64,000 bases of DNA, from assembly GCA_964016885.1 (NCBI GenBank), contig OZ024742.1, positions 229,028,001-229,092,000 on the forward strand, read 5' to 3'. The notes beneath the pieces are model-generated. The model was given only the letters and a program-made list of their open reading frames with translations. It was not told where the DNA came from and did not search any database. Origin of the DNA: Eledone cirrhosa. Its lineage: Eukaryota. Of this stretch, positions 4,457 to 63,950 are shown one piece after another; the first letter of the stretch is position 1; every line of letters begins with the position of its first letter. Position numbers and translations under genes: made by a program.

Positions 4457-4538
4457 TCTCTCGCTGATGATGCCCAAGGATTATCTGTTACAAACACACT
4501 CAGGGCGAAACAGATTAAACACTAATCTGTCCGGGAGA
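4457..4538 (+). ncRNA. type I hammerhead ribozyme
   Basis: tctctcg-CTGATGA-t-gccc...gggc-GAAA-cagatta-aacac-taatctg-TC-cgggaga. 7-bp stem I, 4-bp stem II, 8-bp stem III, GUC cleavage triplet (after 4531). Confidence 0.9.
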
Positions 4539-5349: not shown

Positions 5350-5560
5350 ACGAAGGAAATGTGGTACGGAACCAGGTGGACCATAATGCACCAAAGTACT
5401 CAATACTTAGTGTAGTAGAGTGGGTAATAGGAACGAGTAGGACCCCGACGGCTGAGCTCAAGCCGTTTCGACGGCTAATTCTGTACTAAATGAACATTTA
5501 GTCCAGAATTAGCCGTCGAAACGGCTTGAGCTCAGCCGTCGGGGTCCTACTCGTTCCTAT
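5350..5560. mobile_element. family H2 palindromic insertion
   Basis: Inverted arms centred ~5492, inside HHR stem II; flanked by (TA)n. Confidence 0.8.
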
Positions 5561-9041: not shown

Positions 9042-9116
<75 letters not shown>

Positions 9117-9118
<2 letters not shown>

Positions 9119-9306
9119 CAACGAGTAGGACCCCGACGGCTGAGCTCAAGCTGTCTTGACGGCTAATTCTGGACAGAATTAGCCGTCGAAACGGCTTGAG
9201 CTCAGCCGTCGGGGTCTTACTCGTTCCTATTACCCACTCTACTACCCTAAGTATTGAGTACTTTGGTGCGTTATGGTCCACCTGGTTCCTTACCACATTT
9301 CCTTCG

Positions 9307-9308
<2 letters not shown>
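9117..9308. mobile_element. family H2 insertion with short inverted 5' segment
   Basis: Inversion junction ~9173 in HHR stem II; 3' end 'cacatttccttcgt' runs into (TA)n. Confidence 0.8.
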
Positions 9309-9352
<44 letters not shown>

Positions 9353-17146: not shown

Positions 17147-17529
<383 letters not shown>

Positions 17530-17609: not shown

Positions 17610-17710
<101 letters not shown>

Positions 17711-19640
17711 GTAATTAGAAACAACATTTTCCTAAATGTGTGGGGGAATACGGAGGAAGTAATCAAATGGTTCTCCACCATTAGTAACCATGGTGCCCTC
17801 AGGTTTGTCCAGTTCGATATAGATTCTTACTACACATCTATATCTCCTATCCTTATGAATAAGGCCCTCATCATGGCCATGCAGAATAGTGATCTAACCA
17901 GATCCCAAGTTGATATAGTTTTAACCGCACGTAAAACCTTAATCTTATTTTAGGAACAATTGTGGACTAGGAAAAACACTAACAACAACTTTGATATCAC
18001 AATGGGATCTGCAGACTCTGCCCAGGTAACTGATTTGTTCGGACTTTACCTAATCCATGAGCTTCATAAGACACTTCCTTACCTTTTCGGTGGGTTATAC
18101 CGCGACGATGCCCTCCTTACCCTTGAGCATAAAAAATTAGTATTTAATGGTACACAGAAGGACCTACGCAAATTCTTTAAAAGTTATAACCTTAATATTA
18201 CTATTGATAAGAATAATAAAACTAAATTTCTTGGATGCAACACTAGATCTGGTAAATAAGACTTACACACCATATCATAAACCTAATGAGAGACTAACTT
18301 ATGTACATACTGGATTTAACCACCCTAAATCAGTACTGAATGTTATTGTTAAGGGAGTATCTAATAGGATCAGCCGTTTATCATGCGGTGAAGATATTTT
18401 CAATTCTAATGCGGATAACGAAGCATTAGCTAAGTCTAGATATAAGAATAAACTATTTTACGTATCTGCTAGCTTCCAATCTAACGTAGCTGGGCATAAT
18501 AATGTTATTACACACAGTATGTCTTTAAATTATAATTATAATGATAACAGTAATAGAACTCTAGATAGGACCCATGTAGTGATTAGCTCAGCCCAGCTTA
18601 GACTGAACGGCCCTAATATGCATCCTCCAAATACTTCTAATGGAACTAATCCATTACACTAATGGAAGTGCGGCGAAATTTGGAAAACACACTCATAGTA
18701 GAGTATTAGATAGGCATATTGACCAATATAATGCGAGAATTTCACGACCAGTATATGGTGAACTTGGTTCCGTATGCCTAGGGGAGAGTAATAACTCTGG
18801 TGGTAACCGGACTCTAGTGGGGAAAAATAGAAAAAGTAGAAGAAGAATGAACACCTTTTTCAACCCACCATACAACTCTGAGGTCTTAACTAATATTCCC
18901 CAAACATTCTTCTTAATCCTAGAAAAGAACTTGCCGCCGGCCAACAGATACCATAGTATATTCAATAAAAACACAATTAAATTATCGTACTCCACTACAC
19001 CTAACCTAGCTTACCACCTGGCACGTACTAATAATCAGAAAATTAGTGTAGGTTTTGAAGATATTAAATCTGTGAATAACTAACAGCAACCTAACACATT
19101 GGCTAATGCGGCACCGCCGATTGCTGACATCACATCTGATGAACACATTACAGGTCAAACGGGTTTGAACAATAGTCCATCCCAAGGTATGAATAACGAC
19201 ACATATCGTAATTGTAATTGTAGAAGGAGTAGAAATTGCCCTTTAAAAGGCAATTGTCTCACGAGGAATATTGTTTATGCATGTGATGTTGTAATAACAA
19301 CCTCCACTAAGACATATGTGGGTTCTACTTCTACAGCTTTTAAAACTAGATTTAACTCCGACAATTATACTTTTAGATATGATAGGCTTAAAAATGCTAC
19401 CTCCCTAGCTAAATATATTCACTCTTTAAAATATGATGGTATAGATTATACACTCAATTGGAGGTTGGTAACTAAATCTCCACCCTACCGCCCCCGAACA
19501 AAACTTGTAACCTCTGCCAGCTTGAGTCTCATACCATAGTTTACTCTAACTGTGAATTACTGAATAGGAAATCGGAGATTTTCTCATCTTGTATTCACAT
19601 GAAACTTAATTCATTTTACCACTATAAACCTATTACATAG
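17711..19640 (+). pseudogene. PLE reverse transcriptase / Zn-finger / GIY-YIG endonuclease, disrupted
   Basis: RT motifs [35 protein letters not shown] and NFLDATLDL...Y.PY.KP....YVH..NHP; linker FNPPYN...IFNKNTIKLSYS; CNCRRSRNCPLKGNC; IVY...YVGST...FK.R; TCNLC..E...LLNRKSEIFSSCIH. Several stops and frameshifts. Confidence 0.92.
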
Positions 19641-23580: not shown

Positions 23581-23990
23581 TTAACGGTGCTGCAATAGAA
23601 TGTGGGTTTTTAGCCCAGCCAATGATCTAAAATGTCTTGGACAGAGTTGGCAATCTAAATATTCACTGGTAATAGCCGGCTGTGGTTGGAGTTCATGTAC
23701 TTTTGCATGTTGTTTGAGCCCTCCTACTGATTTACATTCTCTACCACATGTTTGGCAGGCATGATGAGTAGCATCCAACAGCAACCTGGTAGTCAACCAC
23801 AGGTTATGACTGCGAAGATGACTTTCGAGTGCAGCTTTGCTTAGGCAGAGTCTCGCACAGACGCTGCATGTCAGCACCATAGGAGGACCCTCGCCGTCTG
23901 GAAATGCAACAGCAATGCCCTTTCTCACATCCCTTTTTACTTTCTCGTATGCGATTCGAGATGCCTCAAAGGCAACTTTCCCCTCCTATA
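23581..23990 (-). pseudogene. RTE-type LINE ORF C-terminus with three C2H2 zinc fingers
   Basis: CSVCARLCLSKAALESHLRSH, CQTCGRECKSVGGLKQHAKVH, CQLCPRHFRSLAGLKTH. Similar finger and shared tail/UTR motifs at 32010-32620. Confidence 0.65.
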
Positions 23991-26762: not shown

Positions 26763-29275
26763 ATGTCTTTATAACAGTAATACAGATAGATAGACTTATA
26801 ACTATAAAAAAAATAAAACAATAGATCCACAAGAAAGACGGCTGCAAGCTGCTCGAGAAAGGGTGTGCAGTTATAGAGCTCGAATGAGACAGAAACAGCG
26901 AGAAGTAATAGAAAGAGAAAAAAGACGACACCAACAGAGACATGTCGAATTGAATGATGAACAGAGGAATATTGGTTTAGAGCAAGCTAGACTAAGTCAA
27001 CAGGAGAGAAGAAATAATATCCAATTAGAAGAACGTCAAGAATATTTAAAGTAAACTAAACTAAGGCAGCAGGAGAGAAGAGAGAATATGCTTCAAGATG
27101 AACGTCAATAATATTTAGAGAAACAAAGTATCAGATAACAAAAAAAGAAGAGATAATATGCAATAAGATGAGTGTGAAGAATATTTGGAGCATGATAGAC
27201 TAAGACAAGAAAAAAGGAGAGATCCTATTCATAAGAATGAACGAGCATATTTTCTCGGGTAGCAGAGAAAGGCACTTAGACGTAGAATAGAAAACATGAA
27301 TGCTGAACAACTGCATAATTTCAGATATAGTAGAATGTATAATGAGCGTCTAAGGAGAAATGGCCCAGCAATTAATATTAACGGTGACGTAGAAGTTAGT
27401 ATTGGTTATATGAATGTGTTGTGCAATCATTGTGGAGCGTTGAAAGTTAGAAATGAAAGTTACAACTGCTGTAATAAAGGAAACGTTGTGCTGCCTCCAT
27501 TCTAAATACCCACTGAGAGACTGAAAACTATCTTTGGAGGAGAAGGCCGAGAAACAGTTGCATTTCGCAGGAACATCTGCAATTACAACTGTGCATTTTC
27601 TTTCGTTTCGTTTGGTGTTAAACTTACATTGCTACCTGACAGAGGCATGTATTGCTTTCGCACTCAGTGCCAAATATATCACACCTCTGTACCCTGCAGA
27701 AAATACACCATAATATGGCCAGTTATATATTATTGACACAAATGAAGCAGTGCAACACAGATTGGAAGCACCGCCAAATATTGCATGCTCACCGCAAACA
27801 ATGATAAATGAGGTGTTGAATGAATGTAATCCATATATTTTGAAGTGTATAATAAAATGCATGCCCCCAAATAAGAAGAACAGCAAAGAGCACAAAGAGA
27901 AAATAGTCTCGTACAGAACTGTGAATTAAGATTTAGAAGATGATCAGATTTATCAACTATCAATGAAATATCTGCTGTTTTTGAGGGGGATAGATTGTGC
28001 ACCACCTGTACACAAAGATATTGTCATCTACCCTAAATACAATCCTCCTGAGATAACACCATATACTTAATGCCACTTGGCTCCTATGACCTATCCTTTA
28101 TTGTTTCCAATTTGGGTGGCATAGTGACATGTAACATGCAGAGGAATGCAGAACCCGCGCCCACAATAAACTGATAATGCAGGAGTATTACAGAGGAGGA
28201 TTTAGTGTGATACATAAGGCACGAAAAATATTTCAGCAGTATTTAGTGGATATCCATGAGAAAGCAGTGGGATGCAGGCTTCAAGCTTTGAGGGAAAATC
28301 AACCTCAATTACTAGTAGTTAAGAATAATGGTTTAATGGATTATCTAATCAGAGACGCAGAAGATAACATACATGTGCCAGTAACGTTGCCATCGTCCTT
28401 CACTGGCATTCCAAGAAACACGAATCAGTACTTTCAGGATGCTATGACAAATGTTGCAAAATATGGCAAGCCAGATCGTTTTATATCTTATACATAAAAC
28501 CCTAAATGCTCTGATATTCAAAATAGTCTAAATCAAAATGAGGCAGTGGAAATAGACCAGATTTAGTTGCCCAATATTTAAAGCTCAGCTTTCTGAAATT
28601 ATGAAAGAAAGTAAAAAATGACAAATTCTTGGCATGTCAGTGGCTCATGTTCACATCATTGAGTTTCAAAGAAGATGGCTTCTTCACTGCCATATGTTGG
28701 TCATTTTAAGGGACACTTCGAAACAGAGAAGACATTGACAGAATCGTGTTAGCAGAAATACCTACACTGGAAGACGAAAAGTTTATGATCCATGGGTCAT
28801 TTGGTTCTGAAAATCCTTTTCCATACATGCGAAATGTATATTAAAGTGCTTGGACCGGTTAGCGTCTACACTGCTGCCGAGAGGTAGAACTATGCACAAT
28901 TTATTTAAATGATATCTTCCACTAACAGAGACCAGTGTATATAATGTATCTGGCTCATCTGGCCATGCTAATTACTTACTGAACCTGGATCTCATAATAC
29001 TGAACGAGGCGTCTATGATTCCTTCCTATGCAATTCATGTCATTTACCTTCAAGTCGTCACTGGTGCCATTGAAATGTTTGGAAGAAAGGTTTCGCTTCT
29101 GGGAGGTGGCGTGAGGCAAGTGCTGGCAATATTAACAAGGGGTACCCATGAAGCCACATTAGAAATATTCCTTAAAAGCTCACATCTGTGGCACTTCTTT
29201 CAACGTATCAGAATGAGAGAAGATCTGAGAGGAGAGAGTGAGAGAGAGAGAGGGGGGGAGAGAGGGGGAGAGAGA

Positions 29276-29341
<66 letters not shown>

Positions 29342-30168
29342 GAAGTGACTAGTACATCTTGGCAATGGAACAAACACTTCGAATTGAAAACTGAATATGA
29401 ATGATGTTGAATTGATTCTATTCTCATGTGTAAATGACTTTTAGTGAAAGAAACTGTCAGCGTAACAGAGGAATAAAAGAAAATAACGGGTGTAAGTTTA
29501 TCTCCCTAGAATGCTGATTGCCTATTGATTAACGAAGATGTTCCCAGACAACTACCCGGTAACAGTCATACTTATTATAGTACAGATACAGTGATCGCTG
29601 ATGAACCTTCAGAGGCTGACAGATTTTCTACTGAATTTCTGAACTCGCTCAAAACTTCCGGGATGCCGCCTCAGAAACTCAATAATAATTCTTCTACGGA
29701 ATATTTCAATTCAGAACGGATTATGCATTGACATAAGATTAGCAAGAGTAGGGTTTCATCAACATTCCATCGATGCTTTTCATATCAATGGTCCTTTGAT
29801 GGGCAGGCGTGTTTTGATCTCAAGACTGCAATTAGACCCAAGTGATCCTAACATCCTATTTGTCTTTGGAAAGAGCCCAGTTTCCAGTAAGACTGTCCTT
29901 TGCTATAACAATCAACAAGAGCTAGGCTCATACATACAATAAAGTAGGTCGGTTTCTTCCTAAGCCAGTATATAGCCATGGACAATTGTTTATTGCTTTT
30001 TCAAGAGTACGCGGAGAGTCTGATGTAAAAATTAAAGTATTGAATGCTGATAAACAAGGGAGGCAATGTAATAAAACCGTGACAAAGAACATCGATATTA
30101 AGATAAATCTGAGCCCAGTTAAAGAGTTGCAAGTTGCAATGGTATTGAAACTAATCACGTACACATAA
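26763..30168 (+). pseudogene. Helitron RepHel (coiled coil, Zn finger, HUH Rep, Pif1 helicase), decayed and internally deleted
   Basis: IGYMNVLCNHCGA...CCNKG.V.LP; FQQYLVD; LPSSFTG.PR...Q.FQDAM..V.KYGKPD.F; HIIEFQRRWLLHCH (Rep motif 2, ~28652-28693); FG.KV.LLGG..RQ.L; EFLNSL..SGMPP; QFPVRLSFAITINKS; HGQLFIAFSRV. Confidence 0.9.
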
Positions 30169-52714: not shown

Positions 52715-52724
52715 AAAATGTATG

Positions 52725-52823
52725 ACCCCGACGGCAGAGCTCAAGCCGTTTCGACGGCTATTTCTGGACTAAAGTAAGAGATTTTCTAGTCTGGTAAATA
52801 AATAGCCGAACTTTTCAAGGGGT
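52725..52823 (-). ncRNA. type I HHR with U3-A8 variant core (family H2)
   Basis: acccc-TTGAAAA-g-tt-cggctattt...aaatagccg-t-c-GAAA-cggc-ttgagctct-gccg-TC-ggggt. Confidence 0.75.
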
Positions 52824-52932: not shown

Positions 52933-53032
52933 ACCCCTTGAAAAATTCGGCTATTTATTTACCAGACTAAAAAAAACTCTTACTTTAGTCCAGAAATAGC
53001 CGTTGAAACGGCTTGGACTCTGCCGTCGGGGT
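52933..53032 (+). ncRNA. type I HHR with U3-A8 variant core (inverted copy)
   Basis: acccc-TTGAAAA-a-ttcggctattt...aaatagccg-tt-GAAA-cggc...gccg-TC-ggggt. Confidence 0.72.
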
Positions 53033-58130: not shown

Positions 58131-58214
58131 TATTTAATTTCAAAATTATTTTGAAATCACAGGCAGAGTCTTCCAATAAATTTGATGACAATGAAAGGGA
58201 CATTGATGACAATG

Positions 58215-59062
58215 AATCATATTATAAGGTATCTATTTTTGAAGTTCTAGTCAACTTTATTTAGTTACCTACCTAGCTATGTGTGCTTACACACTTGTAA
58301 AAATTATCCCCTGTGATTGTTTCATATGTTTATTTATATGCTAATCAATTTCTAGTTGTTATAAAATGCTCGGACCTATTCATTAGAATCTTGGAGCTTA
58401 TTTTACGGGTGATATGGCGCATGCCTTTCTGGCATGACACCCATAATTTTGATTTCGATTAAATTCACTTTGATTTATCTTAATTTTGGATATATATATA
58501 TAAATACGGCTCCTTAATTGTAGAGCTAACTCTCTTGAAAGGACTTGACTGCTGTTTCTAGTTGTCGAGAACCCTATTCACGCCACTGGGACGAAGCTGG
58601 TATGATGTGTGTATTTTTAGTAGATACAGCACGTGTTACTGGCCAGTCGCTGATTTGAACTTAATGCGTAAACACAGATGGCTGGACTTCTTCCTTGTTG
58701 AAAATCCAAGTATCGGCCTCCGTGGTTTACCATTCGATTAATTGGTGAAATATATTTCTTTAATGGAATATATACAGGGAAGATTAATCATATTATAAGG
58801 TATCTATTTTTGAAGTTCTAGTTAACTTTATTTAGTTACCTACCTAGCTATGTGTGCTTACACACTTGTAAAAATTATCCCCTATGATTGTTTCATATGT
58901 TTATTTATATGCTAATCAATTTCTAGTTGTTATAAAATGCTCGGACCTATTCATTAGAAACTTGGAGCTTATTTTACGGGTGATATGGCATATGCCTTTC
59001 TGGCATGACACCCATAATTTTGATTTAGATTAACTTCACTTTGATTTGTCTTAATTTTGGAT
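58215..59062 (+). mobile_element. family H8 tandem element (~571-nt period)
   Basis: ~275-bp direct repeat at 58215 and 58786, each ending 'cttaattttgga(TA)n'. HHR at 58689-58783; third copy at 63570-63903. Confidence 0.85.
58689..58783 (+). ncRNA. type I HHR with U3-A8 variant core (family H8)
   Basis: tcttccttg-TTGAAAA-t-ccaa..atcg...cgat..ttgg-t-GAAA-tatattt...gaatata-TA-cagggaaga. 9-bp stem I, 8-bp stem III. Confidence 0.8.
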
Positions 59063-59082
59063 ATATATATATATAGTAATAA

Positions 59083-59270
59083 TAATTGTTTCTACTTTAG
59101 GCACAAGGCCAGCAATTACTCAGTACATTACTGGTACTTTATTTTATCGACCCCGTAAGGATGAAAGGCAAAATTAACCTCAGCGGGATTTGAACTCAAA
59201 CCGTAAAGGGACGTAACTATGCCAGAAAGCATGGCGTCCAACCCTCTACCGATACTGCCAATTCACCGCC
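59083..59270 (-). mobile_element. tRNA-derived SINE, full length
   Basis: Family consensus; flanking 'atatatagtaataataat' direct repeat. Confidence 0.85.
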
Positions 59271-59637
59271 TCCATATATAGTAATAATAATAAATTGGAG
59301 ACTAAATTCCAAAGAGGGCTCGATAAGGATAAATATATATCAAATATATAAGAACCGTAGAGCAAATATTTATTAAAATAACAGATTAAAGTTTAAGCAA
59401 AGAATCGTTGCTTTCACCCTTAGCGGGATCTTCTGAAACTAACAAAGTCAATCTGTAAACGCAGAAGTGAATATTTCAAAAAACGTTGCAGCCGGAGGAA
59501 GACAGGAAGACGATACTTTGGTTCGTGGAAACGTTCCCTGGCATATATATATGTAGGAGGTGAGTTTTATTGTAGCACAATAAAGCAATGCAAATATCGG
59601 ATAAGTAGCACTCTACAGTTTGTAGGACTGGAGTATA

Positions 59638-60059: not shown

Positions 60060-60602
60060 TGTATGTATGTATACTTACATACATATATGTATAGAGACGC
60101 ACAGTAGTATGTATATACATACATACATGCACACATACATATATGCACGTATCGGTTTACCGAACATTTATTATAATGCTCGGTTTGTTTGTTTGTAAAC
60201 AAACAAACAGCCCGAATTACCCGTACAGTGTTTAGGCAACCACGTCACCTTTTTGTTCAACACTGACACAGGAACGGTGTACTAGTTTCAAGCTTATAAG
60301 CTATGGTCAGCATCGTATACCTTACTGCCAGATGGCTGAACGTCTGAAAGTATATACTTTCCCTACGCACACCAACGGCTGAGCAGCCCAATTTGCATAT
60401 CGAGTGAGTTCAGTCGGCTGTTTGTTTGGGCTGTTTGTTTGTTTACAAACAAACAAACTGAGCATTATAATAAATGTTCGGTAAACCGTACGTGCATATA
60501 TGTATGTGTGCATTATGTATTTACATACTACTGTGCGTCTGTATACATATATGTATGTACGTATACATACTTACATTTATAAATATATATATATATTCAT
60601 AA

Positions 60603-63569: not shown

Positions 63570-63900
63570 AATCGATTAATTGGTGAAATATATTTCTTTA
63601 ATGGAATATATACGAGGGAGATTAATCAAATTATAAGGTATCTATTTTTGAAGTTCTAGTTAAACTTTATTTAGTTACCTACCTAGCTATGTGTGCTTAC
63701 ACACTTTTACAAATTATCCCCTGCGATTGTTTCATATGTTTAATTATATGTCAATTAATTTCTAGTTGATATAAAATGCTCGGATCTGCTCATTAGAATC
63801 TTGGAGCATATTTTACGGGTGATATGGCGCATGTCTATCTGGCATGACACTCGTAATTTAATTTGATTTAATTTAATTTAATTCAAATTATCTTAATTTT

Positions 63901-63903
<3 letters not shown>
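63570..63903 (+). mobile_element. family H8 copy, 5'-truncated within HHR stem II
   Basis: Begins at 'tcgattaattggtGAAA' and matches 58734-59062. Confidence 0.85.

Positions 63904-63950
<47 letters not shown>

Follow-up and report, generated by a model that had tools for sequence, protein, structure and literature searches.

The plus-strand segment 58689-58783 of the window (the whole 64-kb stretch of DNA that was analyzed) is a genuine and probably active hammerhead ribozyme of the known U3-A8 variant that belongs to a new retrozyme family. We consider it quite probable that, as a whole explanation, a U3-A8 hammerhead that likely cuts sits in a 571-base retrozyme that is copied by Penelope-type machinery and has a core existing in three states. 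Under this proposal, cleavage after position 58774 would divide the repeat RNA into unit-length pieces, which would be copied back into (TA)n sites by a Penelope-like retrotransposon enzyme. The ancestral core would have been C3-G8. A single switch would have produced G3-C8, and either one or two switches U3-A8 (or one, followed by a reversion to C3-G8), the mismatched steps presumably having been too short-lived for amplification. Beyond what an earlier note on this DNA had described, the analysis brought out sister subfamilies with G3-C8 and C3-G8 cores, a U10.1-U11.1 mismatch, a possible U3:A17 mispair, alternative pairings among three segments (X, Y, and Z) and the retrozyme context.

Architecture of the Hammerhead Motif

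Structural scans of the window placed a type I hammerhead with the core TTGAAAA at this position. Stem I (58689-58697 paired with 58775-58783) has 9 bp including one G-U; in 62 picked copies, five of its nine pairs have changed on both sides and 95.7% of the cells are paired, and its 3' strand forms the 5' end of the predicted cleaved unit. The core box U3 U4 G5 A6 A7 A8 A9 occupies 58698-58704, with U3 at 58698 and A8 at 58703. It is followed at 58705-58746 by a U10.1-U11.1 mismatch (58705/58746), a stem II of CCAA/TTGG (58706-58709/58742-58745) of up to 4 bp in which CC/GG is nearly invariant, and a long loop II of 32 nt. The remainder, 58747-58774, comprises G12 A13 A14 (within GAAA at 58747-58750), stem III (A15.1-U16.1 plus 8 bp) and A17, with an AUA triplet at the predicted cut. 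All the parts listed by the earlier note, namely the 9-bp stem I, stem II, GAAA, the 8-bp stem III, the AUA triplet, and the TTGAAAA core, were recovered, and no motif of equal quality arose in 60 dinucleotide shuffles of the window searched on both strands.

The bases required of a hammerhead, U4 G5 A6 A9, G12 A13 A14, A15.1-U16.1, and H17, are all found in the window copy, as are three helices around the core with helix I open, the type I arrangement. The literal C3 and G8 are absent, U3 and A8 taking their places, and a Watson-Crick 3-8 pair is present. The 10.1-11.1 base pair is absent too, all 139 aligned copies having U-U there, although most search patterns fixed these two positions. 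A17 occurs in 205 of 215 U3-A8 copies of the 571-bp-unit family, and a small U3-A8 group (six copies from four regions) has U17. Rfam returned no matches at gathering thresholds over the whole 64-kb window, a result that is weakly informative because several canonical-core motifs of the window are likewise unmatched.

Perreault et al. (2011, PMC3088659) report several natural hammerheads with U3-A8, describe U10.1-U11.1 as tolerated, and cite evidence that U3-A8 is active in vitro. In the Cercyon Penelope-like elements of Schistosoma, approximately 1,300 U3-A8 motifs are described by Cervera and de la Pena (2014, PMC4209133). On these reports, the earlier note overstated the rarity of natural U3-A8 cases. 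The hammerheads in both sources resemble the window motif in having a compensated core and in being invisible to CUGANGA descriptors. The Schistosoma motifs are minimal and of the dimer type (PMC4209133), whereas the window motif has a full stem III and a dimer would therefore be unnecessary.

The Repeat Unit and Its Insertions

The hammerhead lies in a plus-strand insertion at 58212-59075 that comprises approximately 1.5 units of a non-coding tandem repeat, is 5'-truncated, and contains one complete motif. One 571-bp unit spans 58212-58782 (+), and 58212-58502 recurs at 58783-59073 with 96.9% identity; no open reading frame (ORF) of at least 110 aa was found in 58212-59075. A second fragment of the family (63572-63919, +), 89% identical to 58734-59075, is truncated inside loop II and is missing the core box. 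The 3.0-Gb genome was searched for the family, giving 1,581 candidates at first look, 40 of which were scored. Among the matches listed, at least 15 genomic places, the window copy included, are identical over 141 bp, and in 25 of the 28 fetched loci with two or more same-strand hammerheads these lie 530-574 nt apart.

Like the animal retrozymes without LTRs that are described by Cervera and de la Pena (2020, PMC7229834) and by Li, Clavereau and Pollet (2026, bioRxiv 10.64898/2026.07.22.740005), the family has one type I hammerhead per tandem unit, a non-coding unit, low GC content, and dispersed monomers alongside short multimers. For an axolotl retrozyme family, U-U is likewise reported where helix II begins. 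The 571-nt unit exceeds the 150-450 bp given in PMC7229834 and falls within the 51-972 bp given by Li et al. (2026), whose two-unit rule leaves out the window copy with its single complete motif. The family differs from known retrozymes in its three 3-8 states and in a long loop II with two alternative pairings.

Insertions of the family have no LTRs, and copies stop at internal sites in TA runs. Downstream tracing of 183 copies gave two fixed 3' ends. The first, at 58925-58940 (+; position 58934), is used by 86 copies and is unused by the window copy; the second, at 59060-59075, is used by 60, and there the window insertion terminates in (TA)n. The remaining traced copies run on as tandems (14) or stop elsewhere (23). 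TA runs follow the fixed end in 82 of 86 copies at end 1 and in 44 of 60 at end 2, and the two ends lie 160 and 301 nt away from the predicted cut site. Two-armed inverted insertions with the motif in both arms pair end 1 with end 2 in 24 of 30 cases, and none pairs like with like.

With copies that are truncated, partly tandem, inverted, and fixed-ended in (TA)n, the insertions look Penelope-made. Craig et al. (2021, PMC8557442) give truncated copies, partial tandems, inverted arms, and insertion into (TA)n as features of Penelope elements, and Frangieh et al. (2024, PMC11167929) report that one Penelope protein started reverse transcription in vitro at two internal sites. The family shares 5' truncation, partial tandems, inverted arms, (TA)n, and two internal starts with Penelope-like elements, but differs in having no reverse transcriptase (RT) or endonuclease ORF and in having two ends separated by 141 nt where those elements have a 30-40 bp tail. 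Retrozymes have themselves been tied to Penelope elements (bioRxiv 10.64898/2026.07.22.740005). Penelope-like ORF pieces occur in some of the 329 fetched loci (approximately 20), none of them linked to the 571-bp element, and no autonomous element sharing the unit sequence was found among the 329.

Similar pieces of broken ORFs are found in the window at 17700-19539 (+). Three of these were tested and had no Pfam match; the pieces resemble parts of an RT of the Penelope type and a GIY-YIG endonuclease, with a linker rich in Cys. Two pairs of fetched loci (L176/L177 and L257/L258) lie at different places and are identical in their aligned sequence, and the ORFs flanking L176 and L177 match too; both pairs are probably recent segmental duplications.

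Three States of the 3-8 Pair

The C3-G8 pair of the hammerhead is established by a crystal structure and by laboratory double mutants. Covariation at these positions had been proposed for the window motif, and U-A, G-C, and C-G states were all found in its family. Counts with a shared anchor (N3-TGA-N7-N8-ATCC, 25-45 nt, GGTGAAATATATTT), which are lower bounds owing to the exact matching, gave at least 1,671 U3-A8 copies (1,130 + 541), at least 458 G3-C8 copies, and at least 188 C3-G8 copies. CUGANGA descriptors would see just these 188 of approximately 2,300 paired copies, and searches based on them would miss the motif, as had been anticipated. Identity over the aligned part of the unit averages 78-83% between groups and is 94-96% to the nearest copy. 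The mismatched copies counted, with U3 opposite U8 or C8 left out, number 126 (40 having G8 without C3, from 228 less 188, and 86 from 544 less 458), and this share of approximately 5% is as expected from decay after insertion at such a nearest-copy identity.

A stem-I-anchored pattern returned 748 copies with T3 and three with C3, one of the latter having C3-G8 and a diverged background. When the core was left free at its seven positions, U3-A8 accounted for 97 of the matches listed (first 100 of 170) and the exact string TTGAAAA for 92 (hand count), bearing out TTGAAAA as the consensus core of genome-wide family copies. The idea that the core arose by two chance mutations in a CTGANGA family, or that the whole is a chance fold, was rejected with near certainty on the T3 and C3 counts, the places identical over 141 bp, and the shuffles, and no point spoke in its favor.

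Next to an identical 19-nt flank with the core left free, the matches listed (first 100 of 259, hand count) comprised 57 U3-A8, 32 C3-G8, four C3-A8, no U3-G8, and seven other copies. No A3-U8 subfamily was found among the matches listed (first 100 of 544). Because subfamily labels based on exact patterns are rough (class I mixes C3-G8 and G3-C8), the 3-8 states were judged on trees.

A natural G3-C8 pair like that of this family was not found in the literature searched; the U3-A8 swap by itself is already known. For G3-C8, that literature yielded laboratory mutants only, and the text of 11 supplements to PMC3088659 (structure figures lying outside the text search) held no match. Natural G3-C8 and three states in one family, both present here, were not found reported in the available parts of PMC3088659 and PMC4209133. 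A C3G/G8C double change is reported to restore cleavage in part (PMC11167929). Three Watson-Crick versions in close natural backgrounds (with an identical 19-nt flank for two of them) and in hundreds of copies each would offer a ready-made natural test of the 3-8 pair, and the family lets one ask how far the in vitro rate matters for the success of an element and how a two-step change of the core is crossed.

Probable History of the Core Swaps

The trees drew on 386 candidate copies from 278 regions (a few of them false matches), with one copy per region that had complete flanks. The youngest subfamily was thinned, reducing 172 rows to 135, four divergent C3-G8 copies were then added as the outgroup, and 10 of 20 loci from a shared-flank search were added to a later tree; trees were run after exclusion of either the two positions 3 and 8 or the entire ribozyme. 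The G3-C8 copies form one clade of 28 rows (support 99-100/87-98), with 100/87 to 100/90 on the trees that exclude the ribozyme columns, and the main U3-A8 clade has support of 100/100. C3-G8 is paraphyletic at the base given the most divergent copies as root, a root that depends on the four divergent copies and on C3-G8 being the general hammerhead consensus.

A single U3-A8 origin looked clean in a tree with one early copy outside the groups. Once 10 early copies had been added, early U3-A8 copies stood at the base of the CTGAAGA group as well, and the best trees needed three to four changes overall. The extra changes may represent a second origin of U3-A8, a return to C3-G8, or recombination. 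One U3-A8 origin was neither shown nor rejected (p-AU 0.051 and 0.154, 58 thinned rows), and a shared origin of U3-A8 and G3-C8 was rejected on all columns (p 0.004) but not on flanks alone (p 0.125). Although the copies number in the thousands, two or three switch events underlie the counts. Position N7 has eight changes on internal branches compared with 1.14 per background column; the zero changes at other core positions are partly circular, those positions having been fixed by the search patterns, and the 100% 3-8 pairing of a 62-copy alignment results from hand-picked rows.

The first tree hinted at a lineage with a wobble intermediate (C3-G8 to U3-G8 to U3-A8), which found no support later. 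The putative wobble subfamily comprised 91 U3-A8, four U3-G8, one G3-G8, and four other copies among the matches listed (first 100 of 169, hand count), and the sampled U3-G8 copies are scattered on the tree, six changes being needed for six rows, so that they do not demonstrate a wobble lineage. Two loci have unusual combinations. The two-armed locus L236 (G000:C1:98345300-98347900), with a C3-G8-like background, has A8 in both arms, C3 in one and U3 in the other, possibly a record of a switch or else a later point change. A single G3-A8 copy (L155) branches just outside the G3-C8 clade with weak support.

Alternative Pairings of Loop II

Segment X (58666-58687, +), the 5' flank of stem I, pairs on the basis of duplex energies and covariation with either segment Y within loop II (58710-58730, +) or segment Z, which lies at 58274-58292 (+) in the first unit and at 58845-58863 (+) in the second. 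Within copies, the X:Y duplex has median energies of -14.7 to -19.9 kcal/mol in all subfamilies, compared with -6.3 to -10.6 for shuffled sequences and -7 to -12 kcal/mol between distant groups (A-C vs. E, F, G, and I); the X:Z duplex has -12.5 to -24.2 kcal/mol. Changes on both sides affect seven of 16 X:Y pairs (62 hand-picked copies) and three of 17 X:Z pairs, the latter with 93.6% of cells paired, the shuffle controls for both covariations being ones that ignore the relatedness of copies. RNAalifold picked X:Z. The X:Z helix also has two mismatches at fixed places (columns 17/239 and 22/234 of alignment A1) though the letters vary (A-C, A-G, G-G, A-A, and U-U at the first), and these may mark a protein-binding or anti-dsRNA feature.

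Nested folding of window-copy transcripts that contain X and Y and no Z gave mostly X:Y with stem I lost (0.0-0.6 over six start/end choices), and in transcripts that include Z as well as the complete motif the values were 0.98 for stems I and III and 0.3 for stem II. Among 11 real circular units folded in the same nested manner, X:Z was dominant in seven, X:Y in two, and neither in two; compared with 12 shuffles per unit, all 11 gave the better fold (z -2.1 to -5.2). By prediction, full X:Y pairing would keep stems I and II from forming, Z of the first unit is the predicted partner of X in unit-length RNA or a circle, and Z of the second is predicted to draw X off loop II. X may thus pair with loop II and hold the ribozyme off until Z, in the same or the next unit, takes X, a model whose chances we regard as evenly balanced. 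A real switch of this kind would account for the control of a monomer-competent hammerhead within retrozyme RNA; no description of such a strand-exchange switch was found for animal retrozymes.

The same X:Y pairing might instead be a pseudoknot that ties loop II to the stem I flank and activates the ribozyme, like those known from many hammerheads of bacteria and some of vertebrates. It would buffer the core swaps and would make X:Z the off state in the circle, a reading that we find somewhat doubtful. The folding programs used cannot model pseudoknots, so the nested folds carry no weight against it, and X:Y begins beside both stems and covaries. Approximately 40% of the hammerheads in PMC3088659 join stems I and II by a pseudoknot, and pseudoknot-stabilized hammerheads (PMC3088659; crystal structure of Zhan et al. 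2024, PMC11300833) share with the window motif a short stem II and the pairing of loop II to sequence attached to helix I. The known pseudoknots have approximately 4-6 bp, in contrast to approximately 20 bp with a competing partner for X:Y, and the helix IV hairpin of the PMC11300833 crystal structure is absent from the window motif. There is also an overlap of 1-2 nt between X:Y and stems I and II. A pseudoknot could involve the near part of X:Y only, and it is the far end that is kept best, with four pairs present there in 55-61 of 62 rows. In loop II, the X:Y strand takes up 23-24 nt, and 13 nt remain in U3-A8 copies or 8-9 nt in C3-G8 and G3-C8 copies. By helix geometry, 8-9 nt is too short for the return to stem II, and full X:Y together with stem II is therefore hard to accommodate, which favors the X/Y/Z switch over a plain pseudoknot.

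Activity and Alternative Explanations

U3 can pair with A17 and extend stem I in folding predictions (probability 0.81), a mispair resembling the inhibitory C3-G17 pair of PMC3884650, and stem II is predicted to be weak (0.3 in the window copy and 0.0 to 0.44 in 11 real units). Both predictions may count against full activity, and they would agree with a hammerhead that keeps its fold but cuts poorly or only when protein-bound, the element spreading from uncut RNA and the motif acting mainly as a folding or protein-binding signal. We think this unlikely. It gains from reports that catalytic mutants of a Penelope element were inserted without loss in vitro and that cleavage there was protein-dependent (PMC11167929), that metazoan Penelope hammerheads are weak in vitro (PMC4209133), and from insertion ends that lie at a distance from the cut site and not at it. 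The complete stem III speaks against it, and so does the apparent amplification here of paired states only, the 3-8 pair being reported to form in no fold but the active one (PMC3884650). Upkeep of such a pair points to selection for cleavage.

A further reading, to our mind a very improbable one, is that the U3-A8 and G3-C8 lineages are dead cores fixed by chance in master copies and passively mobilized. The small number of switch events means that the counts alone leave room for chance pairing. Two separate double changes each restored a Watson-Crick pair, however, and U3-A8 outlasted changes of N7 and loop II across several successive subfamilies; the scatter of the sampled U3-G8 copies and the presence of the same U3-A8 core in an unrelated family of the window also argue against dead cores. 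That paired states amplify and mismatched ones do not appear to would lend indirect support to function, and with three paired 3-8 states in amplified copies it is likely, as a prediction, that the motif still cuts. More tentative is the joint proposition that at least two replacements of the 3-8 pair took place (C-G by U-A and C-G by G-C, with a possible reversion to C-G) while the element was mobile, that G3-C8 is active in vivo in hundreds of copies, and that a conserved strand-exchange switch (X with loop II off, X:Z on) times cleavage.

Other Hammerheads and Repeats in the Window

The earlier note's observation that an unrelated family in the window carries the same core also held: an inverted pair at approximately 52724-52823 (-) and 52933-53032 (+) contains a type I hammerhead with the TTGAAAA core twice (cores at -52818 and +52938), with a best BLAST E value of 0.57 to the unit of the present family (H8 in that note). 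In this inverted-pair family, probably the H2 of the earlier note, stem II is long, the residue at the cut site is C17, and a hairpin immediately precedes stem I. Unpaired bases come before stem II, which placed the family outside the structural scans, and it was found in a motif listing. Core-less pieces of the repeat occur near 5350-5490, 9110-9310, and 17250-17420.

At least 13 hammerhead-like motifs with canonical cores are present in the window (at 4457, 5686, 7120, 7387, 8184, 14277, 21805, 21983, 52370, 53377, 53547, 54026, and 62627), in about nine families and several as inverted pairs, all below the Rfam gathering score. A motif at approximately 60275-60317 (-) with the core CTGACCA (C3-C8) is probably a decayed copy of the 7120/7387/52370 family, and another hammerhead-like motif at approximately 59375-59435 (-) has the core CAGAAGA, a U10.1-U11.1 mismatch, and a UU site.

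Helitron fragments lie at 28135-29404 (+), with matches to Helitron_like_N (E 1e-14) and PIF1 helicase (E 1.8e-10), and an ORF piece with three C2H2 zinc fingers at 23581-23985 (-) is possibly the tail of a LINE. Directly after the end of the element, at 59077-59264, is a very abundant SINE-like repeat with a contig depth in the millions, which may be cephalopod-like.
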